Of a stretch of DNA of 64,000 nucleotides, positions 52,866 through 64,000 are shown piece by piece (position 1 is the first letter of the stretch; each line of letters begins with the position of its first letter). The position numbers and the translations under genes were made by a program. The notes below the pieces were generated by a model, which saw only the letters and a list, made by a program, of their open reading frames with translations, was not told the origin of the DNA and did no database searches. The stretch is from Escherichia phage ESCO13: the sequence record NC_047770.1. One strand, written 5' to 3'.

Positions 52866-53132
52866 TTATTTTTTGTTTTCTTGCCAGGATAGGACACCTA
52901 ACCAAAAATACATATCGCCCCGCGCCCCTGGTGGTATCTTGCTTTCCCCGCCGCCACTGCAAGCCCATAGATAACCATTTGCGAACGTATCAAAATGATC
53001 TATCTCTTCCACCTTATGATCGCCCAGGTTGAGAACGGTTTCAACCTTTAAGCCCGTTGCGCTTGCTACCTGGTGCACCGTGCCGCCTTGCCAGCCCAAT
53101 GAGTGCATAAGGTGTAATGTAGTATTTGTCAT
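52866..53132 (-). CDS. hypothetical protein in the GC-richer island
   Basis: 88 aa; preceded on the minus strand by its own promoter, 5-prime hairpin and RBS. Confidence 0.5.
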   Translation of the reverse strand: MTNTTLHLMHSLGWQGGTVHQVASATGLKVETVLNLGDHKVEEIDHFDTFANGYLWACSGGGESKIPPGARGDMYFWLGVLSWQENKK

Positions 53133-53154
53133 GGTATCGCCCTTTCTTTGATGT

Positions 53155-53207
53155 GCGCCCTGGTTGGCGCGGTAGAAAGATGATAGCCCTTTCTTTTATA
53201 TATAGCA
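53155..53207 (-). promoter_or_regulatory. minus-strand promoter TTGCTA-N17-TATCAT plus 5-prime hairpin
   Basis: -35 at 53207-53202, -10 at 53184-53179, hairpin GCGCC-AACCAG-GGCGC (53170-53155), then RBS AAAGGG and ATG at 53132; divergent from the first plus-strand cassette. Confidence 0.45.
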
Positions 53208-53241
53208 AGCAAAAAGAAAATAAAAAAGATTGAAAAAGTGA

Positions 53242-53299
53242 TTGACGTTCGCCAGGTGGCGGCATAATATTTACCACGTAGGGCGGCAATGGTGCCGCT
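53242..53299 (+). promoter_or_regulatory. promoter-hairpin cassette 1
   Basis: TTGACG-N17-TAATAT-TTACCACG-TAGGGCGGCAATGGTGCCGCT. Confidence 0.6.
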
Positions 53300-53319
53300 C
53301 ATTATTTGGAGTTAAAATC

Positions 53320-53517
53320 ATGGCAACATTGCACATTGTGGCGAAAGCTGGACAAATAAACGTGGTAGTAAACGGTTTTACTGAGTTCAGTCATCCCCAG
53401 GATGATCATGAAACGGTTTTATCTTTCATTGATTCACTGTTAGAAATGGGAGTAATTACAGAAGACCAGCACGGTACAAAATGCAAGCGCGTTAATCAAA
53501 TTGCAGGAATAGAATAA
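53320..53517 (+). CDS. small hypothetical protein
   Basis: 65 aa MATLHIVAKAGQ...; ATG after RBS GGAG, not the upstream TTG of the track ORF. Confidence 0.55.
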   Translation: MATLHIVAKAGQINVVVNGFTEFSHPQDDHETVLSFIDSLLEMGVITEDQHGTKCKRVNQIAGIE

Positions 53518-53523
53518 AAACTA

Positions 53524-53582
53524 TTGACAACAAACAACAACCTGATAAGATGTATCACATAGGGCGGGAAGTGGTTTCCCGC
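53524..53582 (+). promoter_or_regulatory. promoter-hairpin cassette 2
   Basis: TTGACA-N16-TAAGAT-GTATCACA-TAGGGCGGGAAGTGGTTTCCCGC. Confidence 0.6.
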
Positions 53583-53607
53583 TCGTAACAGAAGAGAGAT
53601 TATCATC

Positions 53608-53880
53608 ATGGCATCATATAGCGCAACAATGATCGTAGCTGGCACAACTGGTAAACCTATGAGCGGTGGCGGATCTTTCGCTAATATCAATATTGACGGG
53701 CGTTTATCCCTGGACGCAGCGATCGCTATTGCACGGGAAACATTTAAGAAAGAATGTAATTTCAACAAGCAAGATTATCTCGGTTTCGCTATTGAAAAAA
53801 CCGCGCGCTTTGTTGATTATAAAAGCCCGAAAATGGTTGATACTACACTAAAAGCGCAAGATGTAGCGTTTTTGCTTTAA
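53608..53880 (+). CDS. small hypothetical protein
   Basis: 90 aa; RBS AGAAGAGAG. Confidence 0.55.
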   Translation: MASYSATMIVAGTTGKPMSGGGSFANINIDGRLSLDAAIAIARETFKKECNFNKQDYLGFAIEKTARFVDYKSPKMVDTTLKAQDVAFLL

Positions 53881-53883
53881 GGC

Positions 53884-53939
53884 TTGACATTAACGAATAA
53901 TTTGTTAATATGTTACATAAAGCGGGAATAGTTCCCGCT
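53884..53939 (+). promoter_or_regulatory. promoter-hairpin cassette 3
   Basis: TTGACA-N16-TAATAT-GTTACATA-AAGCGGGAATAGTTCCCGCT. Confidence 0.6.
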
Positions 53940-53956
53940 ATTTGTAAGGTGGTAGA

Positions 53957-54214
53957 ATGTTTTACATCAAATTAAAAGGTCACGTGATCGCGTTCAAAGA
54001 TAACGCTTTTTACAGATTAGCAAAATATGCGTTAATACATCCCCACTATGTTTATATAAGGAGGCGTGATGAAATAAATATCTTTGATCAAACAACATGC
54101 GAGAACATCGAGATCCGCAAGGTTGGCGTACGTGATTATCGTACATCTTTCTACCCTTGCAAGGATTCAGCAAGTCTTTTTAAAGTATGCCAATTGTTGA
54201 AAAAAGGTGGTTAA
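53957..54214 (+). CDS. small hypothetical protein
   Basis: 85 aa; RBS AAGGTGG. Confidence 0.55.
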   Translation: MFYIKLKGHVIAFKDNAFYRLAKYALIHPHYVYIRRRDEINIFDQTTCENIEIRKVGVRDYRTSFYPCKDSASLFKVCQLLKKGG

Positions 54215-54215
54215 T

Positions 54216-54773
54216 ATGGGCCGCGAATATGTGATCCAGTCTTGGGTAAAACATGAAGCAGATGATCCGCGCATCATTCCCGATCATCTTATCGATGAAT
54301 CCACGGGATATAGCGGTGAGCAAATAGGTAACAGATTAGCACGTAGTAACGGCAACGTAAAAGCGCGTTATGTGCGCCCTGGCTGGCTGGCAAATGGTAA
54401 CGCTGATTTATCCAGTGCGGAAGATGCGAGCGACGGCGCGAAAGATAATCCTTTGTACAAAGTTGATCCGGCTTTTCGTGTCCTGGATGAATACCCCAGC
54501 AAGATAGCGGCGCTCGATCAGGCCCTGGAAAGTAAGCGCATCACCTGGACCGCTTACAACATGGCAAAAAACGTACTTGATGGTAAATTGATTCAAGCTG
54601 AAAGAAAATTAGCCAAAATTGCAGCCATAGCCCAGGAGGAAGACGAGGAGACAACGGAAGAGGAAGAGTACGAAGAGATCCCGCCGTTGTTGTGTGTTGA
54701 TGCTTTTCCTGATTATCAGCCGACAGAGGAAGAAAAAAGGATCGCACTAGAAAACTTTGAAAATAGTCTTTGA
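54216..54773 (+). CDS. hypothetical protein with acidic C-terminal region
   Basis: 185 aa from the ATG at 54216 (RBS AAAGGTGG); second cistron of cassette 3; EEDEETTEEEEYEE stretch. Confidence 0.55.
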   Translation: MGREYVIQSWVKHEADDPRIIPDHLIDESTGYSGEQIGNRLARSNGNVKARYVRPGWLANGNADLSSAEDASDGAKDNPLYKVDPAFRVLDEYPSKIAALDQALESKRITWTAYNMAKNVLDGKLIQAERKLAKIAAIAQEEDEETTEEEEYEEIPPLLCVDAFPDYQPTEEEKRIALENFENSL

Positions 54774-54827
54774 CATATCGCCGCCACTGGCATAATATTT
54801 ACCACGTAGGGCGGCAATGGTGCCGCT
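54770..54827 (+). promoter_or_regulatory. promoter-hairpin cassette 4
   Basis: TTGACA (overlapping the upstream stop)-N17-TAATAT-TTACCACG-TAGGGCGGCAATGGTGCCGCT; near-identical to cassette 1. Confidence 0.6.
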
Positions 54828-54855
54828 CATAGTGAAATTATGCAAGAGGCTTACA

Positions 54856-54951
54856 ATGATTAATAAAGAAAATAGCTTGACGGTTGGAACGATTAACGCT
54901 ATCATTCTAGCCGTTCCATTTTGGATTGTAGTAGCGGCTATTATTTTCTAA
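54856..54951 (+). CDS. hydrophobic micro-protein (31 aa)
   Basis: MINKENSLTVGTINAIILAVPFWIVVAAIIF; RBS AGAGG 6 nt upstream. Confidence 0.4.
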   Translation: MINKENSLTVGTINAIILAVPFWIVVAAIIF

Positions 54952-54959
54952 AAATATTC

Positions 54960-55020
54960 TTGACAACGTTTTTTAATCTGATAAGATGTATCACATAGGG
55001 CGGCGGAATACTTCCCCGCC
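54960..55020 (+). promoter_or_regulatory. promoter-hairpin cassette 5
   Basis: TTGACA-N16-TAAGAT-GTATCACA-TAGGGCGGCGGAATACTTCCCCGCC. Confidence 0.6.
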
Positions 55021-55041
55021 AAAACAAAAAAGGGTAACACA

Positions 55042-55404
55042 ATGAGCAAGCAAATCAATACTATCATGTTAAACCTGGTATCCTTCCGCGATGATATGAA
55101 AAATTTACCACGTGAAACGGTTGATATTCATGTTTCAGCTTATCGCGCCCTTATTGACATGTTACCGCTAAAACGTGATCAACATGCCGCTAACATGATG
55201 CTTAATGCTATGCTTAAAAAGATGATTCAAACGGATCTCATCCTGGCGTATGAGTATCAAGGGCGCTTATATGCTACTTACAACAAGGCGGTACCTGGTC
55301 TGGGAAGTACCGAAGAGTTGCACGGCTTAAACCTGGATCAGAACACTTGGGATAGTATGCGCCGCGTTATGGTATGGGCCGAAAGCGGTAAAATTTACGA
55401 ATAA
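55042..55404 (+). CDS. hypothetical protein
   Basis: 120 aa. Confidence 0.55.
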   Translation: MSKQINTIMLNLVSFRDDMKNLPRETVDIHVSAYRALIDMLPLKRDQHAANMMLNAMLKKMIQTDLILAYEYQGRLYATYNKAVPGLGSTEELHGLNLDQNTWDSMRRVMVWAESGKIYE

Positions 55405-55409
55405 AACGG

Positions 55410-55466
55410 TTGACACTGTTTAAAATTCTGGTATAGTTTATCACGTAGGGCGGCAATGGTGCCGCC
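55410..55466 (+). promoter_or_regulatory. promoter-hairpin cassette 6
   Basis: TTGACA-N16-TATAGT-TTATCACG-TAGGGCGGCAATGGTGCCGCC. Confidence 0.6.
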
Positions 55467-55486
55467 AACAATAAAAGGTTAACATC

Positions 55487-55666
55487 ATGACTATCATTGC
55501 AAAAACTGAGATTATAGGTTTAGATTCGATCCTCCTGGCTTATGAGGAAACTTTAAAAATGTATGTAGTGACCTATGGTGATTATGTGCGTGAATACGAA
55601 TACATTGATCTTGCTTTCGAATGTTACATTCGCCAGGTCAATAAAGCCTATAACGATTATCGTTAA
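55487..55666 (+). CDS. small hypothetical protein (59 aa)
   Basis: MTIIAKTEIIGLDSILLAYEETLKMYVVTYGDY...; below the track cutoff. Confidence 0.45.
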   Translation: MTIIAKTEIIGLDSILLAYEETLKMYVVTYGDYVREYEYIDLAFECYIRQVNKAYNDYR

Positions 55667-55685
55667 AAGTTTTAGTCTTATACTA

Positions 55686-55738
55686 TTGACAATGAGTGAT
55701 AGTATAAGCATAATAACTTTTATCGGGAATACTTCCCA
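55686..55738 (+). promoter_or_regulatory. promoter-hairpin cassette 7 (variant)
   Basis: TTGACA-N17-CATAAT ... CGGGAATACTTCCC. Confidence 0.5.
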
Positions 55739-55763
55739 CTAACCAAAAAAAGAGAGTAATATC

Positions 55764-56129
55764 ATGGCTATTAATATCAATGTTTCCTCTTATGCTACCC
55801 TGGCTGACACGGCTAAAATTGAATTATCCAGCATTGAGGCGGTGCATATTAGCGCCCGTCGTTGGTTTCAACAGTCCTACGGTAACACATATTTTTCTTT
55901 AATGGTTGACGTTGAGATCGGCGGTAAACTGATCGAGGTGGTTAACGTTCCGTTTCAATATGGTTATGGTGATCATTTTGATACCGTCGCCCTGGAAGAA
56001 TTTAGCAAGGTTATTAATATGGAAGGTAAAGAGTTTTCACGCGGCGCGTATCTTTCCCGTTTTTGCCGTGACAATGGGATCACTGTATACAGTCATGCAA
56101 GCGATGTTAAACGTAAAAAAGATTTATAA
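55764..56129 (+). CDS. hypothetical protein
   Basis: 121 aa; RBS AGAGAG. Confidence 0.55.
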   Translation: MAININVSSYATLADTAKIELSSIEAVHISARRWFQQSYGNTYFSLMVDVEIGGKLIEVVNVPFQYGYGDHFDTVALEEFSKVINMEGKEFSRGAYLSRFCRDNGITVYSHASDVKRKKDL

Positions 56130-56135
56130 AAAGCA

Positions 56136-56194
56136 TTGACAGCACGAATAAAAAGAGTAAACTGTATTACATAGAGAGCGGGAACACTTCCCGC
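56136..56194 (+). promoter_or_regulatory. promoter-hairpin cassette 8
   Basis: TTGACA-N16-TAAACT-GTATTACA-TAGAGAGCGGGAACACTTCCCGC. Confidence 0.55.
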
Positions 56195-56218
56195 CTCACT
56201 GAAAAAGAGATTAACATC

Positions 56219-56458
56219 ATGGCTAAATCAAAAATGTTCTTAGGTCACAAAAATAAAACTCATTGGAATGTAAGCCTTTGGATTAATAACGACGAATCAT
56301 TATATCGGTTGGCGAAAGAATTTATCGCCGCTAATACTAATCGTAATGATGCTGCCCGTGATATGATGTTATTCCTGGAACAAACTGGACAAGATAAAAC
56401 TCCAGACGGTTTCAAGTATAGTAAAACTGCAATCCGTGCCGCGATGGTTGGAATGTAA
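56219..56458 (+). CDS. small hypothetical protein
   Basis: 79 aa. Confidence 0.55.
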   Translation: MAKSKMFLGHKNKTHWNVSLWINNDESLYRLAKEFIAANTNRNDAARDMMLFLEQTGQDKTPDGFKYSKTAIRAAMVGM

Positions 56459-56467
56459 TAAAAACAG

Positions 56468-56526
56468 TTGACAACGTTTAAAATTAGTGTAAGATGTATC
56501 ACATAGGGCGGGAAATGGTTTCCCGC
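56468..56526 (+). promoter_or_regulatory. promoter-hairpin cassette 9
   Basis: TTGACA-N16-TAAGAT-GTATCACA-TAGGGCGGGAAATGGTTTCCCGC. Confidence 0.6.
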
Positions 56527-56549
56527 TCACAACAGAGAGATTAAAGATT

Positions 56550-56777
56550 ATGGCTATCAATATTGTTCGCGTATCCGGCACCGTTGGCTATTCCCAGGTT
56601 GTAGCAGTTGTAACAAACAAAAAGATTAATGATGTATGTGAGATCTTGAATAAGTGGGCTATTGCTAATTTTGGAGAATATGCAAGCGTCGAGTACATCG
56701 AATCCTACCAGGTGCCGACCATCAGCCTAACCGATCTCAACGTTGATCGCCTGTTATGCCTGGATGAATTAAACTAA
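56550..56777 (+). CDS. small hypothetical protein
   Basis: 75 aa. Confidence 0.55.
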   Translation: MAINIVRVSGTVGYSQVVAVVTNKKINDVCEILNKWAIANFGEYASVEYIESYQVPTISLTDLNVDRLLCLDELN

Positions 56778-56784
56778 AATAATA

Positions 56785-56841
56785 TTGACAAGATAACTAA
56801 AATCAGTAAAATGTAATGCATAGGGCGGCAATAGTGCCGCT
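56785..56841 (+). promoter_or_regulatory. promoter-hairpin cassette 10
   Basis: TTGACA-N16-TAAAAT-GTAATGCA-TAGGGCGGCAATAGTGCCGCT. Confidence 0.6.
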
Positions 56842-56863
56842 CATAGTAAGAGGGATTATCAAA

Positions 56864-57079
56864 ATGGCTAATATCCGCACACTGTTAAAAAATGCAAGTC
56901 AAGTTTTATTTTCAGATGACGAGTATTTCAATAAAGACATTACAGGCGTGAAAAATTTAAAAGACGTTAAGGATGTAATAGGTATTCGAGGATCTTTACG
57001 TAAAGGTGACTACTACGGCAATAAAGTACAATATAAATTAAATCAGTCTTATGATTTTACTTTGACAATTATTTCATAA
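56864..57079 (+). CDS. small hypothetical protein
   Basis: 71 aa from MANIRTLLK (RBS AAGAGGGA). Confidence 0.55.
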   Translation: MANIRTLLKNASQVLFSDDEYFNKDITGVKNLKDVKDVIGIRGSLRKGDYYGNKVQYKLNQSYDFTLTIIS

Positions 57080-57085
57080 AACCGC

Positions 57086-57147
57086 TTGCAATCTTAATAA
57101 AATAAAGTAAACTGTATTACATCAAGGCGGCGGAATGGTCCACCGCC
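57086..57147 (+). promoter_or_regulatory. promoter-hairpin cassette 11
   Basis: TTGCAA-N16-TAAACT-GTATTACA-TCAAGGCGGCGGAATGGTCCACCGCC. Confidence 0.55.
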
Positions 57148-57171
57148 TAACAAAGAGAAGAGGAAAACATC

Positions 57172-57339
57172 ATGATCACTTTCGCTACCCGTGAAGCCGC
57201 TCGCAACGTTGCCCGTAAAGTTAACGCCGCCAACCTGGGCGCTACGCTTAAAGCCCCTGTAAAAGATGAATCAGGAAAATGGATCTTCCCTGGTCTGCGT
57301 CATGCTGACAAGTTAGGTACTTTAAGCCTTAAAAAATAA
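57172..57339 (+). CDS. small basic protein (55 aa)
   Basis: MITFATREAARNVARKVNAANLGATLKAPVKDESGKWIFPGLRHADKLGTLSLKK; below the track cutoff. Confidence 0.45.
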   Translation: MITFATREAARNVARKVNAANLGATLKAPVKDESGKWIFPGLRHADKLGTLSLKK

Positions 57340-57342
57340 TCG

Positions 57343-57380
57343 TTGACTTTTCGTTATAGCGCCTTATAATGGGCGCTATA
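57343..57380 (+). promoter_or_regulatory. consensus promoter TTGACT-N16-TATAAT inside a 9-bp inverted repeat
   Basis: TATAGCGCC-TTATAATG-GGCGCTATA (57355-57380) brackets the -10 hexamer; operator-like. Confidence 0.5.
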
Positions 57381-57413
57381 GAGAAGAGAAACCACTACTA
57401 ACAAGGAAACATC

Positions 57414-57635
57414 ATGATCACTTTCGCTATTGTCGCCGTTGTCGCTGGTCAGGTTTACATAAACGATACATTCACCACAGAAGACAAGGCCGCAGGAGAC
57501 ATAACCGCCGTTTACAATGAGTGCAAGGCAGTAGAAAGGATGTTAGCGCCTTGTATGCTAATGAGTGAACGCCAGGACGGGATAACAGTATTTACTAACA
57601 TTGAAACAGGGTACCAAATGGTAGTAACAAAATAA
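57414..57635 (+). CDS. small hypothetical protein
   Basis: 73 aa; shares the MITFA N-terminus with the preceding ORF. Confidence 0.55.
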   Translation: MITFAIVAVVAGQVYINDTFTTEDKAAGDITAVYNECKAVERMLAPCMLMSERQDGITVFTNIETGYQMVVTK

Positions 57636-57638
57636 AGC

Positions 57639-57695
57639 TTGACACGGATTTAATTTTTAGTAAACTGTTACACGTAGGGCGGGAATAGTTCCCGC
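57639..57695 (+). promoter_or_regulatory. promoter-hairpin cassette 13
   Basis: TTGACA-N16-TAAACT-GTTACACG-TAGGGCGGGAATAGTTCCCGC. Confidence 0.6.
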
Positions 57696-57714
57696 TCAAA
57701 AAGAGAGAAAGACC

Positions 57715-58068
57715 ATGAAAGCACAAAATGCAATTAAAGAGTACATCCTTGCCGCTATCGATTTTAATGATTACGGTATTACAACCGAAAAAGAGAAGAT
57801 CGCGGAATTGATGCGCCGTTTTAATTCCGAGTACTGGTACCCTGATAACCAATCACGTTTTAATTATAGTATTGTTAAAGCACTTGCATCATGGTTACAA
57901 GGCTTGCCATCAGATATCAATATCGCTTTCGAATATTGGGAAATTGATCGCCTGTTAACATCCTGGGGATACATTAAAGAGAATAGCAGCGATGATAAAA
58001 TCCAACGAGAAAGGGAAAATTATTGGCTTTATATTGCAGGCGTGATCCTTGCTTGCTCTTATGAATGA
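57715..58068 (+). CDS. hypothetical protein
   Basis: 117 aa. Confidence 0.55.
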   Translation: MKAQNAIKEYILAAIDFNDYGITTEKEKIAELMRRFNSEYWYPDNQSRFNYSIVKALASWLQGLPSDINIAFEYWEIDRLLTSWGYIKENSSDDKIQRERENYWLYIAGVILACSYE

Positions 58069-58074
58069 TAAACC

Positions 58075-58128
58075 TTGACAATTTTACAAAACAGTTTAAA
58101 TTAACAATATAGCGGCAATGGTGCCGCT
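58075..58128 (+). promoter_or_regulatory. promoter-hairpin cassette 14
   Basis: TTGACA-N16-TAAATT-AACAATAT-AGCGGCAATGGTGCCGCT. Confidence 0.55.
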
Positions 58129-58147
58129 CATATGAAGAGGAAACAAA

Positions 58148-58294
58148 ATGAATACATCTAATCGCGCAGAAAAAATTCAATCTTCCAAGATCCGCAAGGC
58201 CTGGAACGAGGAAGTGATCCGCAAAGGCGACAAGCGCAATAAAACAAAGCGCGGGAAGAGTGACAAATATAATTGGATGGATTTAGAGGATTAA
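58148..58294 (+). CDS. small basic protein (48 aa)
   Basis: MNTSNRAEKIQSSKIRKAWNEEVIRKGDKRNKTKRGKSDKYNWMDLED; RBS GAAGAGGAA. Confidence 0.45.
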   Translation: MNTSNRAEKIQSSKIRKAWNEEVIRKGDKRNKTKRGKSDKYNWMDLED

Positions 58295-58303
58295 CATAAC
58301 AAG

Positions 58304-58329
58304 GGGCGCACCAAGCGCCCTTTCTTTTT
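58304..58329 (+). terminator. rho-independent terminator
   Basis: GGGCGC-ACCAA-GCGCCC followed by TTTCTTTTT. Confidence 0.6.
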
Positions 58330-58350
58330 ACATGTAGAGGATAAACAAAG

Positions 58351-58536
58351 ATGACTTTAAGCGAGCTTAAAACAGCCTACAACGCAACGTTAAAAATAGC
58401 CGTGCGTTACCGTGACGAATACGGTTTTATTGCGCAGGGCGTGATCCTGGGCTTTTCTGACGATGGTTTGATCTATGTTGATGCACATCACAATAAGGTT
58501 AAACCTGAAAACGTCATTAGCATAAAATATCTTTAA
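58351..58536 (+). CDS. small hypothetical protein
   Basis: 61 aa; RBS GAGGA; no own promoter seen (read-through?). Confidence 0.5.
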   Translation: MTLSELKTAYNATLKIAVRYRDEYGFIAQGVILGFSDDGLIYVDAHHNKVKPENVISIKYL

Positions 58537-58542
58537 AAGTGG

Positions 58543-58600
58543 TTGACACCATAACCGGACCTGTTAAACTGTATTACATCAGGCGGGGAATAGTTCCCAC
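58543..58600 (+). promoter_or_regulatory. promoter-hairpin cassette 15
   Basis: TTGACA-N16-TAAACT-GTATTACA-TCAGGCGGGGAATAGTTCCCACC. Confidence 0.55.
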
Positions 58601-58620
58601 CATACAAAAAGGTAAATATT

Positions 58621-58827
58621 ATGATCACCGCAAAACAAGAAAAAATCATTATCGACGTTGCAGCCGTTGCCGCTATTGCTATTATTGGATCTTATTATGA
58701 CACCGCGCGTCCTTCCTCCTTGCATGAGGTCGCCGCCGTTGCATCAGTTGGCGTACTGTTTTACGTTGGTAAACGCTATTTATCACCAATGATTAACAAG
58801 CTGACACCGTGGAAAAATAAAGGTTGA
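58621..58827 (+). CDS. small membrane protein
   Basis: 68 aa; hydrophobic stretches IIIDVAAVAAIAIIGSYY and VAAVASVGVLFYV. Confidence 0.55.
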   Translation: MITAKQEKIIIDVAAVAAIAIIGSYYDTARPSSLHEVAAVASVGVLFYVGKRYLSPMINKLTPWKNKG

Positions 58828-58883
58828 TCCTGTTTTATATTGTGTTATAGTTATCGTGTAGGGCGGCAATGGTGCCGCGCCCT
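58824..58883 (+). promoter_or_regulatory. promoter-hairpin cassette 16
   Basis: TTGATC (overlapping the upstream stop)-N16-TATAGT-TATCGTG-TAGGGCGGCAATGGTGCCGCGCCC. Confidence 0.55.
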
Positions 58884-58898
58884 TTTGAGGATGCAATC

Positions 58899-59183
58899 AT
58901 GAGTAAAGCTAACACCGTGCTAATGTTTTCCCTGATTAATGATTCCGCTTACTTGTCCAACATGACGCAGGAGGGTAACACATTAACGGCAACATTCACC
59001 AATAAGCTTGACCGGGTGATCATCGTCTCACTGAAAACAGTTAGTAAAGGCTTTTACTCGTTAGCTTATCATTGGATCACCGATACCGATGAGACAAGCC
59101 AGGACTATAGCACCCCTTTCCCTGAATCAATGGCACGGGAGGTCATCGCCGCCGTTGTAAATGATGGTTTGTTTACTGCATAA
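58899..59183 (+). CDS. hypothetical protein
   Basis: 94 aa from MSKANTVLMFSL. Confidence 0.55.
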   Translation: MSKANTVLMFSLINDSAYLSNMTQEGNTLTATFTNKLDRVIIVSLKTVSKGFYSLAYHWITDTDETSQDYSTPFPESMAREVIAAVVNDGLFTA

Positions 59184-59201
59184 AATAATTTAGAAAAAGG
59201 C

Positions 59202-59258
59202 TTGCAATCATTTTGAGATAGTGTATATTTAATTCATAGGGCGGCGGGAATAGTTCCC
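59202..59258 (+). promoter_or_regulatory. promoter-hairpin cassette 17
   Basis: TTGCAA-N16-TATATT-TAATTCA-TAGGGCGGCGGGAATAGTTCCC. Confidence 0.55.
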
Positions 59259-59281
59259 AAAGCAAACGAGAGGATTACACG

Positions 59282-59401
59282 ATGAGCAAGTACACAGTAG
59301 AATACACGGTAGAAAATCCGGCAGTATCCGAAGGTAAAAAGATGACATTTGCCATCAGTATAATCGCTTTCGTTATCACTATCTTATCAATCATCTTATA
59401 A
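59282..59401 (+). CDS. micro-protein with C-terminal TM helix (39 aa)
   Basis: MSKYTVEYTVENPAVSEGKKMTFAISIIAFVITILSIIL; RBS GAGAGG. Confidence 0.4.
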   Translation: MSKYTVEYTVENPAVSEGKKMTFAISIIAFVITILSIIL

Positions 59402-59411
59402 GGTGCGTACT

Positions 59412-59573
59412 ATGAAAACAACAGACATTATCAAAGAGATCGCCCTTGCCGCTGACGTTGAGATCGAGGAAGTGATCGCGCTCAACCTTACAGAAAACGA
59501 TCTGCGCAACTATGAAGCGGAAAGCGTGAAAGCAAGCGGCGCGGTCCTGGCATATAATCCGGCTAACAAGTAA
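59412..59573 (+). CDS. small acidic protein (53 aa)
   Basis: MKTTDIIKEIALAADVEIEEVIALNLTENDLRNYEAESVKASGAVLAYNPANK; RBS AAGGTG. Confidence 0.4.
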   Translation: MKTTDIIKEIALAADVEIEEVIALNLTENDLRNYEAESVKASGAVLAYNPANK

Positions 59574-59582
59574 GGGGATAAC

Positions 59583-59693
59583 ATGAATCCGAAAGATATG
59601 CAAGCATGGAAAGGGTACGACGATCTAAGCGCCTTGCGCAATAAGTCAAGCCGTAACCTTAGACGGTTGGAAGCAAAGAAAAAGAAAAAATAG
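59583..59693 (+). CDS. small basic protein (36 aa)
   Basis: MNPKDMQAWKGYDDLSALRNKSSRNLRRLEAKKKKK; RBS AAGGGGA. Confidence 0.35.
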   Translation: MNPKDMQAWKGYDDLSALRNKSSRNLRRLEAKKKKK

Positions 59694-59694
59694 T

Positions 59695-59751
59695 TTGACA
59701 AGTCCGCCTAGTCTGATAATATGTATCTTGTAGGGCGGCAATGGTGCCGCT
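59695..59751 (+). promoter_or_regulatory. promoter-hairpin cassette 18
   Basis: TTGACA-N16-TAATAT-GTATCTTG-TAGGGCGGCAATGGTGCCGCT. Confidence 0.6.
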
Positions 59752-59771
59752 CACAAGAAGAGAGAAAAATC

Positions 59772-60056
59772 ATGAAAATCACAAAAAGCCTAACTAATTA
59801 TGCAGCACGTCGCGGATTATGTTTAACCGTTGAAAACTTAGGGAAAGAAGACTTTTTGTGTTTTTGGGAGCTTGAAAATGATTGCGAGTGGATGTTTTCT
59901 TATTCTATCTGCGAAGATCAAAACGGTTGTTTGTTAACCTGGCGCGGTAATATCTATTTACCGGAAGAAATTAAAGAAGAGTTACCAGGTACGATCATGA
60001 CAGAGAGACAGCTTAAGGAAGTGATCAATTTTGTAGGGCAAAACATTAAAAAATAA
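59772..60056 (+). CDS. Cys-rich hypothetical protein
   Basis: 94 aa from MKITKSLTNYAARRG; several Cys. Confidence 0.55.
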   Translation: MKITKSLTNYAARRGLCLTVENLGKEDFLCFWELENDCEWMFSYSICEDQNGCLLTWRGNIYLPEEIKEELPGTIMTERQLKEVINFVGQNIKK

Positions 60057-60057
60057 T

Positions 60058-60119
60058 TTGACAGTAGGCAAACAACGTAGTAAAGTTTATTACATAGAGC
60101 GGCGGAATGGTCCACCGCT
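60058..60119 (+). promoter_or_regulatory. promoter-hairpin cassette 19
   Basis: TTGACA-N17-TAAAGT-TTATTACA-TAGAGCGGCGGAATGGTCCACCGCT. Confidence 0.55.
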
Positions 60120-60141
60120 CACAACAGAAGAGAAACAAATC

Positions 60142-60312
60142 ATGATCCCGACTATGTTTTATGTATCGCGCAAAGGTCACAATATTTTTTGGTCTGAAGA
60201 TTTAAATGAAGCTATGACGTTTGCCCGTGATCGTGTTGCTATCGGTGGCGTTAATATCACCGTGACCGATGAAAACGGCATTGAATACTATAACGGCGAT
60301 GATGAAGAGTAA
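60142..60312 (+). CDS. small hypothetical protein (56 aa)
   Basis: MIPTMFYVSRKGHNIFWSEDLNEAMTFARDRVAIGGVNITVTDENGIEYYNGDDEE. Confidence 0.5.
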   Translation: MIPTMFYVSRKGHNIFWSEDLNEAMTFARDRVAIGGVNITVTDENGIEYYNGDDEE

Positions 60313-60318
60313 TCAACA

Positions 60319-60338
60319 AGGCGGGATTAATCCCGCCT
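60319..60338 (+). other. perfect 20-bp palindrome AGGCGGGATTAATCCCGCCT (promoter-less intercistronic hairpin)
   Basis: Preceded by TAATCAACAA; no -35/-10 pair and no U-tract. Confidence 0.5.
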
Positions 60339-60356
60339 ATATTAAAGGGTAATACA

Positions 60357-60494
60357 ATGAAAACTTTCAACGCAACAGCCTCGACAATTGGTTATATTAT
60401 TACAGTGCAAGCCGTGGATCTGGTAGCAGCAGCAAACAAGATTAAAAAGATGATCCCGCCAGGTAGTGAATTTTCCGTTTGGGAAGTAAAATAA
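60357..60494 (+). CDS. small hypothetical protein (45 aa)
   Basis: MKTFNATASTIGYIITVQAVDLVAAANKIKKMIPPGSEFSVWEVK; RBS AAAGGG. Confidence 0.4.
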   Translation: MKTFNATASTIGYIITVQAVDLVAAANKIKKMIPPGSEFSVWEVK

Positions 60495-60497
60495 ACC

Positions 60498-60559
60498 TTG
60501 ACAATAATTTGTTATCTGATAAAGTGTATTACGTAGGGCGGGGCAATGGTGCAACGCCC
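60498..60559 (+). promoter_or_regulatory. promoter-hairpin cassette 21
   Basis: TTGACA-N16-TAAAGT-GTATTACG-TAGGGCGGGGCAATGGTGCAACGCCC. Confidence 0.55.
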
Positions 60560-60577
60560 ATTAATGAGGGTAGAATC

Positions 60578-60682
60578 ATGTTAGAGAAAATTTTCACGGT
60601 TGTAATAGTGGGCCTGGCGTTATCGGTTGGAGTGGTTGCAACTATGGCTAACATGATCCTATCTTCCCACGGTATCGGTTAA
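60578..60682 (+). CDS. hydrophobic micro-protein (34 aa)
   Basis: MLEKIFTVVIVGLALSVGVVATMANMILSSHGIG; RBS GAGGG. Confidence 0.4.
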   Translation: MLEKIFTVVIVGLALSVGVVATMANMILSSHGIG

Positions 60683-60692
60683 GGTGAAACAA

Positions 60693-60908
60693 ATGATCAC
60701 GAACAAAACAGGCAAAACGGAATTTTTACGCGGCTTACAAGTTGGTAAGCCTGAGATCTGGCATTGCACGAAGTCCGCGCATAATGAAATGAAAGATTTC
60801 ACCGCTACTTTACAACGTGTTAAAATATCTATTACGCAGAAAAAAGCCTTATTAGTAGTAGAAAACGAGATCCCGCAAACCATTATTATTGTCGAGCGTA
60901 CAGCATGA
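60693..60908 (+). CDS. small hypothetical protein
   Basis: 71 aa from MITNKTGKTE (RBS AAGGTGA). Confidence 0.5.
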   Translation: MITNKTGKTEFLRGLQVGKPEIWHCTKSAHNEMKDFTATLQRVKISITQKKALLVVENEIPQTIIIVERTA

Positions 60909-61291
60909 AAACAGAAATCATTAACGAAATCATCAACGGCTATAAAGAAGCCTTTATTTTTGCTGAATCAGCAAGGGATCATGAAGGTAATTTTATAGAT
61001 GACATGACTGATTATGATTTTTCAGATCAAGCCCATCAACGGATCGCCCAGGATGTAACAGCCTTTATTAATGCTAATCTTGCCGCTATCTCTGAGGCAA
61101 TGAGCGACGGCGCAACAGCCAACCAGATCGGGAATGATTTACATTTTACCCGTAACGGTCACGGCGTAGGATTTTGGGATCGCCCTGAAATATACACCAC
61201 TAACACGGCGAACCGCCTAACAAATGCAGCTAAGTTTATGCCGAACGTGTCGGCTTACATTGGTGAAGATAATTTGATTTATATTGAATAA
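60905..61291 (+). CDS. hypothetical protein
   Basis: 128 aa; ATGA overlap. Confidence 0.55.
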   Translation: MKTEIINEIINGYKEAFIFAESARDHEGNFIDDMTDYDFSDQAHQRIAQDVTAFINANLAAISEAMSDGATANQIGNDLHFTRNGHGVGFWDRPEIYTTNTANRLTNAAKFMPNVSAYIGEDNLIYIE

Positions 61292-61297
61292 AAAGTA

Positions 61298-61354
61298 TTG
61301 ACACAGATCGCCAGTGTGCTAATATTTACCACGTAGGGCGGCAATGGTGCCGCC
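61298..61354 (+). promoter_or_regulatory. promoter-hairpin cassette 22
   Basis: TTGACA-N16-TAATAT-TTACCACG-TAGGGCGGCAATGGTGCCGCC. Confidence 0.6.
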
Positions 61355-61372
61355 GATAATGAGGAAAATAAA

Positions 61373-61672
61373 ATGGAAACTATCGCTATTGTTACCGTAG
61401 AAAAACTGGTTGTTGGTGATGTGTTCGCGTTAATGGTGCCTAACAGCAGCAAACTGGGCGCTTATGAAGTGATGGACCATAAAAATGAATCATTTGGCGA
61501 CGGTTGCACAATGGCGGTAAAATCCTTAAAGGATGGAATCATCCGCCAGGCTAACTGGCACAAAGGGAATCAAGTCGGTTTAATATCAGCTAATTTCTTG
61601 CCAGAAGAGCAAACGTTAGACCAACTATCAGGCGGTAAGACGTTAGCCGAACTACTGGAAACAGCGATCTAA
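61373..61672 (+). CDS. hypothetical protein
   Basis: 99 aa; RBS GAGGAAAA. Confidence 0.55.
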   Translation: METIAIVTVEKLVVGDVFALMVPNSSKLGAYEVMDHKNESFGDGCTMAVKSLKDGIIRQANWHKGNQVGLISANFLPEEQTLDQLSGGKTLAELLETAI

Positions 61673-61680
61673 TCAACAAA

Positions 61681-61696
61681 GGGGCGGCAACGCCCC
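61681..61696 (+). other. promoter-less intercistronic hairpin GGGGCG-GCAA-CGCCCC
   Basis: Preceded by TAATCAACAAA; no U-tract. Confidence 0.45.
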
Positions 61697-61716
61697 ACAT
61701 CAGAAAGGAAAAGATT

Positions 61717-61953
61717 ATGAGTATTGCAACAGTATTAAACGCCGTTAAAACCGCTGAATCATCCGGCTTGCATGTTGAGCTTATAGATCAACCAGGTGGC
61801 GATCTCCTTGTCCAGGTTTACCCGCCGAAAGTAGGGGATGATTATTATTGGGCTTATTCTGATACGTTCGAACAAGTAGACACGAAAGCGATCACGGCTT
61901 TTATTTTAAAAGCTATTGAAGAAAATAACTTTCATCATAACATCAATCAATAA
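61717..61953 (+). CDS. small hypothetical protein
   Basis: 78 aa. Confidence 0.55.
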   Translation: MSIATVLNAVKTAESSGLHVELIDQPGGDLLVQVYPPKVGDDYYWAYSDTFEQVDTKAITAFILKAIEENNFHHNINQ

Positions 61954-61962
61954 ACCATAAGC

Positions 61963-61978
61963 GGGGCGGTAACGCCCC
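61963..61978 (+). other. promoter-less intercistronic hairpin GGGGCG-GTAA-CGCCCC
   Basis: Same hairpin family as 61681-61696. Confidence 0.45.
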
Positions 61979-62007
61979 ATTAAACGCAATAGGAAGAGGA
62001 TAGACGC

Positions 62008-62292
62008 ATGAAAAACATGATCGCAGTAGTTGCCCTAGTTGTTGGTATTAACGCGCCTGTACTGGCTAATGAGTTGCCAGAATCCATCACGTTAACCGAT
62101 ATCAACGCAGTGAACCGGATCGGTGTTAATTATCGCCTATGCCTTGCCGCTAAAACTTTCCAGGATGGCACAACAGAGTACTACGGATTCGAGGGTATCC
62201 GGTGCGGTGAGCTTGCACGCGACCTTAAGGAAGATCCAGACCTTGAGGCCATACCGATGACCGTAAACGGTAAAGCTTACGTAAGCCGCTAA
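62008..62292 (+). CDS. secreted/periplasmic small protein
   Basis: 94 aa; signal peptide MKNMIAVVALVVGINAPVLA. Confidence 0.55.
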   Translation: MKNMIAVVALVVGINAPVLANELPESITLTDINAVNRIGVNYRLCLAAKTFQDGTTEYYGFEGIRCGELARDLKEDPDLEAIPMTVNGKAYVSR

Positions 62293-62294
62293 CC

Positions 62295-62429
62295 ATGAGA
62301 AAGGTAATCATCACAATGGGGATCGTAGTAGCAACGCTGGCGCTTATTCCCTTCATGGTTGAACATGTGCTGATCAATGTTGTCCTGGTAGTCAGCGACC
62401 TATTAGAAACGGTTGGCAACTGGTTTTAA
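62295..62429 (+). CDS. hydrophobic micro-protein (44 aa)
   Basis: MRKVIITMGIVVATLALIPFMVEHVLINVVLVVSDLLETVGNWF; starts 2 nt after the upstream stop. Confidence 0.4.
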   Translation: MRKVIITMGIVVATLALIPFMVEHVLINVVLVVSDLLETVGNWF

Positions 62430-62438
62430 GATAAATAA

Positions 62439-62468
62439 ACAGGGCTTGCAATAGTCCTGTTTTTTGTT
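62439..62468 (+). terminator. rho-independent terminator
   Basis: ACAGGGC-TTGCAATA-GTCCTGT followed by TTTTTTGTT. Confidence 0.55.
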
Positions 62469-62606
62469 ATACTTATTGAACGGGCGGCACCTGGGAGCAG
62501 GGGAAGATAATCACCGGAAGACCCCGCTATATATATTGATAGCTAACACCTATCAAACAACAAAACATCAAAGAGATAAACTATCAAATCTTTACAATCC
62601 CACCTA

Positions 62607-62664
62607 TTGACACCGGATCACGCTTACATTATTATTTATCACGTAGGGCGGGAATGTTTCCCAC
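62607..62664 (+). promoter_or_regulatory. promoter-hairpin cassette 24
   Basis: TTGACA-N17-TATTAT-TTATCACG-TAGGGCGGGAATGTTTCCCAC. Confidence 0.55.
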
Positions 62665-62683
62665 CTGATTTAGGAGTCATATC

Positions 62684-62917
62684 ATGATCGAACAAATTAA
62701 AAGCACTACACCAAATGTTAACGGTAATGTTTCTCACTTTATCGGGGATAATGAAAGAGGTACACCGTACGCCGCCGTAACCGTTCAACCTAACGGGGAT
62801 TATTGGTTTACCGTGTACGGATCTTACTCTTTTGGACGTTCGGCACATGATAAGATCTTGCAAGTGGTTAAGCCTACTGGGAAGAATATCACAGCAGAAA
62901 AATTTTATAAAAAATAA
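62684..62917 (+). CDS. small hypothetical protein
   Basis: 77 aa; RBS AGGAG. Confidence 0.55.
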   Translation: MIEQIKSTTPNVNGNVSHFIGDNERGTPYAAVTVQPNGDYWFTVYGSYSFGRSAHDKILQVVKPTGKNITAEKFYKK

Positions 62918-62918
62918 C

Positions 62919-62978
62919 TTGCTTTATAGCTCCTGTTAACTTATAGTTATTGCGTAGGGCGAGCAATACAGCAAGCCC
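62919..62978 (+). promoter_or_regulatory. promoter-hairpin cassette 25 (degenerate)
   Basis: TTGCTT-N17-TATAGT-TATTGCG-TAGGGCGAGCAATACAGCAAGCCC. Confidence 0.45.
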
Positions 62979-62995
62979 ACAAAGAGGAAAATAAA

Positions 62996-63364
62996 ATGAG
63001 CAAATCAGCAATTAAAGCACTTGAAAAAGCACAAGAAGTGATCGCAACGTCAACCACTGGCGCAAAGGTTAATCTCGTTGGTTATCTGACAGATGAAACT
63101 ATCCGTAAAAATTGGCGTAATGCTGATTTACTGGCTTGCTTATTGATTAATAGTGTCGCTAATGCTTTCCAGTGTGAAACAGCCGAGAGCCTGGAGGAAA
63201 ACTTGTTTGATAATATGGATCAAGCCATTGAAACCTATATTCAATCAAATTTAGATAGCTGGAACAGTAAAACATGGCCCGACAATTTACGCGATACAAC
63301 TGATCAACTGATCCGCCTTGCCCTGATGGTTGAACGCGATAACGTTCACAACCGCACAAAGTAA
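62996..63364 (+). CDS. hypothetical protein
   Basis: 122 aa; RBS AAGAGGAAA. Confidence 0.55.
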   Translation: MSKSAIKALEKAQEVIATSTTGAKVNLVGYLTDETIRKNWRNADLLACLLINSVANAFQCETAESLEENLFDNMDQAIETYIQSNLDSWNSKTWPDNLRDTTDQLIRLALMVERDNVHNRTK

Positions 63365-63375
63365 GATTATACAAG

Positions 63376-63395
63376 GGGCGCACTAAGCGCCCTTT
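63376..63395 (+). terminator. hairpin / weak terminator
   Basis: GGGCGC-ACTAA-GCGCCC followed by a short TTT; same hairpin family as 58304 and 63940. Confidence 0.4.
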
Positions 63396-63422
63396 AACGT
63401 AAAGAAATGTAAATAATGCGCT

Positions 63423-63459
63423 ATCCCCTATTGACAGGGGATCGGCGTTATATTATATT
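63423..63459 (+). promoter_or_regulatory. sigma70 promoter TTGACA-N17-TATATT with an inverted repeat over the -35
   Basis: ATCCCCT-ATTGAC-AGGGGAT (63423-63442) flanks the -35; no 5-prime hairpin. Confidence 0.5.
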
Positions 63460-63504
63460 TAACTCACTGGCAGCAAACAACGAAACGAAACAAAGGATAA
63501 CACT

Positions 63505-63924
63505 ATGAACATTAAATCAAATAATCCAGCTTACTCCTTCGATAACGCTTTTTGTCACGGTAGCGCCGCCAAAGGCTTCGAAATCGATGGTAAATTGGTT
63601 ATCGTGAACGTTGACGGGGAAGAGGTTGCAGTGTATCCGGTAAACGATGTTAAAAGCCGTTTACAATGCCGCATGGATGTTACCGCATATCAGCTTGATC
63701 CGGTCCGTGTAGTTGCCCTGGTGTTAGAGGAAGAGATCAAAGCAATGCATCACAGTAATAAGTTTATTGGTGACGCGCAGGATAATATGAACGTTTGCCG
63801 CCATAAAGTTAATGAAGCATTGAAAGAATGCGGTTTTAAGGATCTGATGATTAAACGTGATGAAAAATTCCGCTTTCGTAATGACCTGGCAAACCGGATC
63901 TACTCAATCTATGAAGCGTTATAA
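63505..63924 (+). CDS. hypothetical protein
   Basis: 139 aa; RBS AAAGGA. Confidence 0.55.
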   Translation: MNIKSNNPAYSFDNAFCHGSAAKGFEIDGKLVIVNVDGEEVAVYPVNDVKSRLQCRMDVTAYQLDPVRVVALVLEEEIKAMHHSNKFIGDAQDNMNVCRHKVNEALKECGFKDLMIKRDEKFRFRNDLANRIYSIYEAL

Positions 63925-63939
63925 TTGACAACAAAACAA

Positions 63940-63965
63940 GGGCGCACCAAGCGCCCTTTCTTTTT
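63940..63965 (+). terminator. rho-independent terminator
   Basis: GGGCGC-ACCAA-GCGCCC followed by TTTCTTTTT; near-identical to the terminator at 58304. Confidence 0.6.
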
Positions 63966-64000
63966 GCCCGAACAATGTTGATAGCTTTCGCCTATGAAAA

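Follow-up and report, generated by a model that had tools for sequence, protein, structure and literature searches.

The short intergenic segment that separates two small ORFan genes around position 57343 of the 64,000-nucleotide stretch of phage DNA analysed in this work (referred to below as the window) is probably a PeSL-like composite cassette, in which a promoter and an RNA hairpin would be dual-coded, with the hairpin acting on read-through RNA and the whole segment serving as a junction for gene shuffling. The comparisons described below show one compact cassette, common to two phage subfamilies, that joins promoter information in the DNA to a strongly selected hairpin in the sense RNA, and from these comparisons we infer the promoter activity, the start site and the effect of the hairpin on RNA. 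Large virulent coliphages used in therapy carry long arrays of tiny early ORFans, whose expression and reshuffling are poorly known outside T4. The cassette would carry the PeSL concept, in which promoter/stem-loop linkers serve gene shuffling, beyond the T4-like phages, and it offers a testable model for transcript insulation in tandem early-promoter arrays without canonical terminators. In addition, the covariance model derived here can be used to annotate cassettes that software calls "terminators" or ignores, and the results provide a warning that a palindrome around a -10 hexamer should not be read as an operator without comparative data.

The window is from a Phapecoctavirus (Stephanstirmvirinae). 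Its segment 56500-58500 is 100% identical to the corresponding part of the Escherichia phages vB_EcoM_ESCO37 and REC and shares 94-99% identity with dozens of phAPEC8-like phages. On the + strand, an array of small ORFan genes extends from about 53.2 kb to the end of the window. This array is comprised of about 20 units, each containing a TTGACA (-35) hexamer, a spacer of 16-17 nt, a TAnnnT (-10) hexamer, a GC hairpin, a purine-rich leader and the ATG of a small ORFan. The array hairpin (typically GGGCGGC-AATGGT-GCCGCTC) has 7-10 bp and a folding energy of -9 to -20 kcal/mol, and its onset is about 10-12 nt 3' of the -10. Given a start about 7 nt past the -10, the hairpins of these units should begin at about +4 or +5 of their own transcripts. 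The unit at 57343 is alone in enclosing its -10 within the hairpin, whereas its approximately 20 neighbours place the hairpin after the -10. It is preceded by an ordinary unit (Table 1), whose hairpin would form the 5' end of the transcript of the 55-aa gene, and the terminator scan revealed no U-tract terminator between the promoter of that unit and position 57343.

Table 1. Positions of the nested module, its elements and the neighbouring features in the window
Feature	Position	Strand	Remarks
Ordinary early promoter, TTGCAA-N16-TAAACT	57086-57113	+	Nearest source of read-through RNA crossing the nested module
Ordinary array hairpin, AGGCGGCGGAATGGTCCACCGCCT	57125-57148	+	Starts 12 nt after its -10; -15.8 kcal/mol
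30-nt direct repeat, copy 1	57158-57187	+	RBS and first five codons (MITFA)
Upstream gene, 55-aa ORFan	57172-57339	+	phrog_13689, function not assigned in PHROGs; stop codon 3 nt before the -35
A-rich tract, TAAAAAATAAT	57330-57340	+	Candidate UP-like element; includes stop codon
Extended RNA hairpin, about 20 bp	57342-57392	+	Predicted fold -26.3 kcal/mol, z -5.75
-35 hexamer, TTGACT	57343-57348	+	In RNA, the leader pairs with the first two T and with the final C and T; G and A bulged
Spacer, 16 nt	57349-57364	+	
5' arm of perfect 9-bp inverted repeat, TATAGCGCC	57355-57363	+	Within the promoter spacer
-10 hexamer, TATAAT	57365-57370	+	Exactly the 6-nt apical RNA loop, closed by U57364·G57371
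3' arm of inverted repeat, GGCGCTATA	57372-57380	+	Doubles as GC-rich discriminator; contains predicted start
Predicted transcription start, T57377/A57378	57377-57378	+	7-8 nt past the -10; sigma70 geometry and YA step
Purine-rich leader, GAGAAGAGAAACC...	57381-57413	+	Shine-Dalgarno-like AAGGAAA at 57403-57409, before ATG 57414
30-nt direct repeat, copy 2	57400-57429	+	90% identity to copy 1, spacing 242
Downstream gene, 73-aa ORFan	57414-57635	+	phrog_25390, function not assigned in PHROGs; served by the predicted nested promoter

The nested promoter, TTGACT-N16-TATAAT, agrees with the sigma70 consensus at 11 of 12 positions, which bears out the description of it in an earlier note on this DNA as a good sigma70 promoter. 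The same note considered it to be the closest sigma70 match in the array, and this holds only in part: five other + strand sites between 50 and 64 kb tie with it at 11/12, but of the tied sites it alone possesses a perfect TATAAT. The A-rich tract located 5' of the -35 may constitute an UP-like element, as judged from the consensus of the proximal UP subsite, AAAAAARNR, and comparable A-rich tracts are present 5' of most other copies of the cassette; the stop codon of the upstream gene (57337-39) lies within the AT-rich TAAAAAATAA. The likely start of transcription is A57378, predicted from sigma70 geometry together with a conserved pyrimidine-A step, and this YA step is nearly invariant at the predicted-start position across all copies. 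The discriminator of the nested promoter (GGGCGC) is GC-rich, in contrast to the AT-rich discriminators of its neighbours. As a GC-rich discriminator can alter the kinetics of sigma70 promoters, the nested promoter could differ kinetically from these neighbours. No further hairpin is found between 57381 and the ATG at 57414, as was also noted earlier, and because the -10 is not followed by a hairpin, the transcript of this promoter should lack the 5' stem-loop carried by the transcripts of the neighbouring units. A second promoter lying further upstream, which would place the hairpin at the 5' end of a transcript, was considered and rejected; the best candidate, AATAAT at 57335-40, has a -35 matching at only 2/6 positions and is not conserved among the other copies.

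The -10 hexamer is bracketed by a perfect 9-bp inverted repeat, which had been reported in the earlier note and was confirmed at the coordinates listed in Table 1, with an 8-nt loop (TTATAATG) between the two arms. Perfect 9-bp inverted repeats with a loop of 3-10 nt are not rare by themselves; five of them are present in the window, compared with 2.7 +/- 1.8 in Markov simulations. Among 217 promoter-like sites on both strands, the longest stem that abuts a -10 is that of the 57343 site, where it consists of 11 pairs, nine of them Watson-Crick and two terminal G·U. By our own estimate, a value of about 0.01 applies to the occurrence of nine Watson-Crick pairs at 16 registers over the 217 sites. 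A chance origin of this geometry, which was also considered, is rejected on these register statistics and on covariation, and we regard the conservation of the structure with compensatory changes in the relatives as the decisive evidence.

To examine covariation, homologous junctions and similar modules were gathered from relatives, and 12 variants were aligned by MAFFT without fitting to a structural model. In this unfitted alignment, 97.5% of the cells of the 10-bp core pair and six of its pairs have undergone compensatory double changes, and sliding the register by 1-3 columns causes pairing to fall to 22-50%. For the extended helix of 19 pairs in the same alignment, 95.6% of the cells pair and nine pairs are compensated, and the extended structure beats shuffles on every measure, with none of 500 shuffles reaching the observed value. 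A covariance model was then built from the extended-helix alignment and 34 hits were aligned. Of the cells in this larger alignment, which is fitted to the model and hence leans towards the structure but with which the unfitted 12-variant alignment agrees, 96.8% pair, compensatory changes affect 12 of the 19 pairs, and covariation scores 0.531 versus 0.183 +/- 0.015 for shuffled data. Within the 34 hits, one pair of the lower helix is found in four different types (CG, GC, AU and UA), and covariation is also seen between the final -35 base and the base it pairs with (UA in 23 cases and GC in seven). If the palindrome were an operator, however, symmetric change in its two half-sites could imitate part of this covariation.

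The structure predicted for the RNA extends well beyond the perfect palindrome. The RNA was folded over 57335-57400, and the core fold alone has an energy of -16.8 kcal/mol. The complete hairpin has a lower helix of 3 bp and a middle helix of 6 bp, separated by a GA bulge, and then, past a 1x1 mismatch, an upper helix of 11 bp capped by an apical loop that is exactly UAUAAU, with 20 pairs for the sequence in the window. In this extended helix the purine leader pairs with the -35 and the spacer (19 consensus pairs by RNAalifold). When 13 variants were folded singly, the lower helix, GA bulge, middle helix, 1x1 mismatch and an upper helix of 10-14 bp were present in all of them, with 20-23 bp in each and energies of -21 to -30 kcal/mol. 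The non-Watson-Crick cells on the sense strand comprise 75 G·U versus 12 A·C, several of the U·G positions are conserved, and the sense-strand fold is more stable than the antisense fold in 11 of the 13 variants. This strand asymmetry indicates a hairpin formed by the RNA of sense transcripts, and it argues for RNA rather than DNA pairing because G·U greatly exceeds A·C on one strand, whereas no asymmetry would be expected of an operator in double-stranded DNA or of a two-stranded cruciform. As the predicted start lies inside the 3' arm, the nested promoter's own transcript should be unable to form the hairpin, and therefore only RNA begun upstream of 57342 would form it. A search of the region 53000-64000 against Rfam 15 gave no match to any curated covariance model at E <= 1. 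An antisense terminator, for which the minus strand offers a T-run, was also considered, and it was rejected on the grounds that 11 of the 13 variants fold less stably on the minus strand and that the 75 G·U cells would turn into C·A mismatches.

In the promoter-bearing copies, the promoter hexamers have been retained along with the hairpin. Across two subfamilies, TTGAC(T/G) is kept 16-18 nt from the loop hexamer while the stems change. The loop hexamers read as -10 in the promoter-bearing copies are TATAAT, CATAAT, GATAAT, TAAGAT, TATCCT, TATCAT and TAAGCT, and the A at the second position and the T at the sixth are present in all of these. Judging from these copies, the A2/T6 invariance is a signature of sigma70 recognition, not an RNA-loop requirement. 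The arms TATAGCGCC/GGCGCTATA are retained in close relatives, and in some of these C-to-T substitutions have turned pairs into G·U (TATAGCGTCC, TATAGCGTTC). In Klebsiella Justusliebigvirus-like phages the corresponding sequence is TATGCCGTGC-TATCCT-GTACGGCATA, and in Vequintavirinae (viz. Salmonella phage SSBI34, Av-05 and Serratia phage ChuuTotoro) it is TATGCCGC(T/C)...GGCGGCATA around TATAAT. The hairpin AATAGCGCCC...GGGCGCTATT is kept with both hexamers degenerate in a viral contig, PsgM04F and phiWec190, all of which have TTAGCC where the -35 would be, and whose loop reads GCCAAT (CTCAAT in phiWec190). In ZCKP1 and SF1-1, the arms are kept and the 8-nt loop is exactly inverted (CATTATAA), which places TATAAT on the other strand; an antisense promoter in these loop-flipped variants was rejected, as its -35 matches by eye at most 2/6 positions. 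Taken together, the aligned variants show that selection has acted on pairing in the sense strand as well as on the promoter hexamers.

The cassette was identified in both the Stephanstirmvirinae and the Vequintavirinae, with 1-7 copies per region examined. The ESCO37-type genome contains one nested copy in the 116 kb searched (the window and 52 kb more of ESCO37 from outside its positions 50001-83513), and because only this copy is present in the 116 kb, recombination between like copies would be unable to operate inside an ESCO37-type phage. Salmonella phage SSBI34 has seven copies in an early region of 23 kb, a 146-kb viral contig has four to six in 11 kb, and two or three copies per short locus are found in Klebsiella phages and viral contigs; a pattern scan added one multi-copy contig. 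The scan with TTGACT-N16-TATAATGGGCG matched mostly unrelated promoters, and a search for related loci with the 55-aa protein retrieved four viral contigs only. Homology among the phages crosses the module and ends directly after GAGAAGAGAAACCA, and at this breakpoint the Schickermooser-type phages have an extra gene of 219 nt. In the loci examined, at least five unrelated genes are found after the module and at least three before it, and two relatives have an ordinary promoter-then-hairpin unit, not the nested module, behind the same upstream gene. These gene orders show replacement of genes at the edges of the cassette.

Based upon these observations, the same 51 bp would perform two jobs, that of a sigma70 promoter as DNA and that of a hairpin as RNA. 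In the DNA, the A-tract, TTGACT, N16, TATAAT and the GC-rich discriminator would start the mRNA of the 73-aa ORFan at about 57378. In the RNA, transcripts from upstream promoters, of which the nearest is that at 57086-57113, would cross the 55-aa gene and fold the segment 57342-57392. The hairpin would then act as a transcript boundary on read-through RNA, either as a barrier that shields the upstream message at its 3' end, or as an attenuator of read-through, or as a processing site. Since it survives the loss or inversion of the promoter, and since it swaps with an ordinary unit at the same position, its selected role should be exerted on read-through RNA. The cassette would, in addition, be a junction at which phages acquire, lose and exchange small neighbouring genes. 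A search of the literature revealed no transcript maps or earlier description of this element for Phapecoctavirus or Vequintavirinae. A bolder proposal, which we put forward only tentatively and consider rather unlikely to hold in all its parts, is that rV5-like and phAPEC8-like phages share an undescribed, covariation-supported family of structured RNA: its DNA would be a complete sigma70 promoter, the hairpin of about 20 bp, formed in read-through RNA only, would be a signal for nuclease processing or stability, the processed and primary RNAs would have about the same 5' end, and inversion of the loop, as in ZCKP1 and SF1-1, would be an evolutionary on/off switch of the promoter that spares the RNA element.

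One possible refinement of the role of the hairpin, which does not conflict with the composite cassette but to which we give a rather low probability, is that it is an RNase III processing site similar to those between the early genes of T7. If read-through RNA were cut on the 3' side of the stem, the upstream mRNA would acquire a protective 3' hairpin, and the 5' end of the downstream RNA would be nearly equal to that of the primary transcript of the nested promoter. The helix required by E. coli RNase III measures about two turns, and with 20 pairs in the window the helix attains the length of roughly 20 bp or more, mostly double-stranded, that such a site calls for. The helix of about 20-23 bp, with its 2-nt bulge and 1x1 mismatch conserved in all 13 folded variants, the maintenance of the lower helix by covariation (the CG/GC/AU/UA pair) and the absence of a U-tract are all consistent with processing, which would also explain the extra length in comparison to the array hairpins of 7-10 bp. 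However, the lower helices are short and interrupted, the lower helix would be opened by ribosomes ending at the stop codon 3 nt upstream, and no Rfam match exists in the region. If the element were instead a plain terminator of the 55-aa gene, its promoter-like hexamers would be incidental. The homologous hairpin in phage ASO2A has in fact been annotated as a rho-independent terminator by WebGeSTer, which was used for the annotation of that phage (methods in PMC10612097), and a PeSL stem-loop decreased reporter expression as much as rrnB T1 (PMC2839356). However, none of the 20 copies inspected has a U-tract after the stem, which in the window runs into GAGAAGAGAAACC, although canonical U-tract terminators are used elsewhere in the phage, including those inside the array at 58301-58323 and 63938-63958; the terminator scan lists these two sites, at 58301 and 63938, and not the nested one. 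Plain intrinsic termination is hence unlikely, and the retention of TTGAC(T/G) and of TAnnnT with A2/T6, 16-18 nt apart, in two subfamilies while the stems change makes incidental hexamers highly improbable.

The earlier note had seen in the inverted repeat the geometry of a repressor operator or of a cruciform-prone element, and neither of these suggestions is upheld by the comparative data. According to the operator explanation, a dimeric repressor of the phage or the host would bind to the two arms, which flank the -10 two helical turns apart, and would silence the promoter. The repeat is indeed perfect and centred on the -10, operators overlapping a -10 are common, and the outer bases of the arms, TAT(G/A)..(C/T)ATA, are fairly conserved among the copies. 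However, the inner arms differ within a single genome, that of SSBI34 (TATGACCG, TATGCCTG, TATGTGGG and TATGCCGC), and yet each copy is self-complementary; G·U exceeds A·C by 75 to 12 on one strand; the covarying pairs are not confined to the palindrome but include the -35 and leader; and the hairpin is retained where the promoter has been lost. We therefore consider an operator to be very unlikely. The least probable of the explanations is that a cruciform extruded on supercoiled phage DNA either occludes the promoter or exposes a single-stranded -10, thereby making it sensitive to supercoiling. Its appeal lies in the GC arms around an AT-rich centre, in the fold of the single-stranded DNA (-9.2 kcal/mol, z -3.65) and in a promoter engineered as a cruciform, reportedly by Horwitz and Loeb in 1988; the exact inversion of the loop in ZCKP1 and SF1-1 also indicates that the arms interact as DNA at least occasionally. 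Against it, arms of 9 bp with an 8-nt loop are costly to extrude, extrusion would use up the spacer and destroy the -35/-10 spacing, the G·T of many family members becomes A·C mismatches in the hairpin of the other strand, and the hairpin is kept in the promoter-less and loop-flipped variants. The further suggestion that the downstream gene is regulated differently from its neighbours retains some merit, as the unit is built differently and its GC-rich discriminator makes a different behaviour plausible, but the operator and cruciform mechanisms invoked for it are unsupported.

[quoted passage not shown] Their stems include G-T pairs, they sit between ORFans and they mediate ORFan insertion, deletion and shuffling (Arbiol et al., 2010, PMC2839356; Comeau et al., 2014, PMC4122927), and the stem-loop that was tested reduced expression of a downstream reporter (PMC2839356). 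Examples have been described from RB49/phi1, PST and nt-1 (PMC2839356; PMC4122927). Mini-circles produced by PeSL-PeSL recombination are a further trait of the family. PeSLs have been defined only in T4-like phages, and their stems without covariation analysis. The nested module shares with them a sigma70-like early promoter with a stem-loop in a short gap between small ORFans, an AT-rich stop-codon region upstream and an SD and ATG downstream, and flanking ORFans that are inserted, deleted or replaced from one close relative to another. Of the traits that characterize PeSLs, we find a promoter predicted to be near-consensus, a stable stem-loop overlapping the -10, an intergenic ORFan position and an ORFan-exchange junction. 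In the trait of many repeats the picture is mixed, with one nested copy in 116 kb here and multiple copies in SSBI34 and the 146-kb contig. The lineage, viz. Phapecoctavirus of the Stephanstirmvirinae, is not T4-like, and hence we refer to the module as PeSL-like and not as a PeSL sensu stricto. It also differs from PeSLs in its occurrence in the Stephanstirmvirinae and Vequintavirinae, in its fixed geometry, with a loop equal to the -10 and a helix of about 20 bp, supported by covariation, that takes in the whole promoter, in having no U-tract, and in being a single copy here among about 20 units with the hairpin after the -10.

The resemblance to other systems is more limited. The early mRNA of T7 contains RNase III processing hairpins between its genes, and the sib element of lambda is responsible for retroregulation. 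Like the T7 sites, the module is an intergenic hairpin, about 20 bp long and interrupted by small internal loops, in what would be a polycistronic early phage mRNA, and like sib its complete structure would be present only in read-through RNA from one promoter and not in transcripts that start or end inside it. It shows no sequence similarity and no Rfam match, and the T7 sites lack a promoter. With operators of the LexA, LacI and phage-repressor types it shares an inverted repeat centred on the -10 of a strong promoter, but in those operators it is the half-site sequence recognized by one repressor, and not the pairing, that is conserved, and only the contacted bases have to be symmetric, whereas the arms of the module vary within one genome, its G·U pairs are strand-specific and its pairing continues beyond the palindrome. 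The promoters of phage N4 are used by a dedicated virion RNA polymerase and have short stems with 3-nt loops. In these promoters and in that of Horwitz and Loeb, as in the module, the core of the promoter lies within an inverted repeat capable of forming a hairpin; the module differs from the N4 promoters in its classical sigma70 hexamers and in that its evidence is for pairing of RNA, not DNA. In addition to these features, the two copies of the 30-nt direct repeat (Table 1) bracket the 55-aa gene together with the module, and both flanking genes open with the MITFA codons.

In two relatives, Klebsiella phage ZCKP1 and Shigella phage SF1-1, the 8-nt loop of the nested module (the promoter contained within a hairpin) was found to be exactly inverted (CATTATAA vs TTATAATG), while the flanking 9-bp arms were unchanged. 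As a result of this flip, the sense strand loses the TATAAT and the hairpin is kept. A change of this kind is the signature of an event mediated by the inverted repeat, either an inversion or a template switch. The coordinates of this and other features are summarized in the table below.

The upstream gene and the module are also bracketed by a 30-nt direct repeat, whose two copies are 90% identical and lie 242 bp apart. Because each copy spans a ribosome-binding site and the five codons that open the gene, both of the flanking ORFans (55 and 73 aa), which are unrelated, begin with MITFA. The repeat resembles either the footprint of a recombination event or a substrate for one, by which the upstream gene and the module could be excised as one.

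The gene content next to the module varies among the relatives. In many of them (Schickermooser, phiWec179, Mt1B1_P17, P3322, and others), an extra 219-nt ORFan is present immediately 3' of the module, and in these phages a promoter-like stretch without any hairpin precedes the next gene. In two IMG/VR contigs (L003 and L004), the 55-aa upstream gene is present (98% identical), and next to it, in place of the nested module, comes an ordinary TTGACA-N17-TAAAGT unit, whose GGCGGGAAATGGTTTCCCGCC hairpin sits downstream of its promoter; the 73-aa gene is absent. Salmonella phage SSBI34 (Vequintavirinae) carries seven nested promoter-in-hairpin cassettes within 23 kb, the stems of which differ among the copies (TATGACCG, TATGCCTGGTA, TATGCCGC, TATGTGGGG), and its early array seems to use this cassette commonly as a unit.

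Coordinates of the features in the window and in related phages
Feature	Record or locus	Position	Related position or detail
Inverted loop with arms	L032 (ZCKP1), L031 (SF1-1)	~456-481	homologous to window 57355-57380
30-nt direct repeat	window	57158-57187, 57400-57429	
Extra 219-nt ORFan	L001 (phage Schickermooser)	2419-2637	insertion point relative to window ~57394/57395
Ordinary unit in place of module	L003, L004	~1665-1760	
Nested cassettes	L039 (SSBI34)	10618, 12593, 13309, 15506, 16435, 17072, 17854	record 118000-141095
Ordinary hairpins	window	53242-62640	e.g. 56826-56846, 57677-57697
Intrinsic terminators	window	58301-58323, 63938-63958	
Spacer palindrome	window	53249-53262	promoter at 53242
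Related GC-rich spacers	window	54770, 61298	
71-aa ORF	window	56864-57079	

The ordinary hairpins of the array (about 18 units) are strikingly uniform, with GGGCGG(C/G) stems and conserved AATGGT/AATAGT loops; all of them lie about 11 nt downstream of the -10, and they would be predicted to give each early transcript a 5'-terminal stem-loop. Two nearly identical canonical intrinsic terminators, both reading AAGGG(G)CGCACCAAGCGCCCTT followed by TCTTTTT and separated by 5.6 kb, are the only + strand U-tract terminators within the early array. One promoter has a 12-bp palindrome, CGCCAGGTGGCG, in its -35/-10 spacer, and related GC-rich spacers occur at two other sites. Lastly, a 71-aa ORF is named 'phosphoribosylpyrophosphate synthetase' in ESCO37 (identical to the window), anhysbys, and SF1-1; its length is far below that of this enzyme, and the name has therefore probably spread by annotation carry-over.
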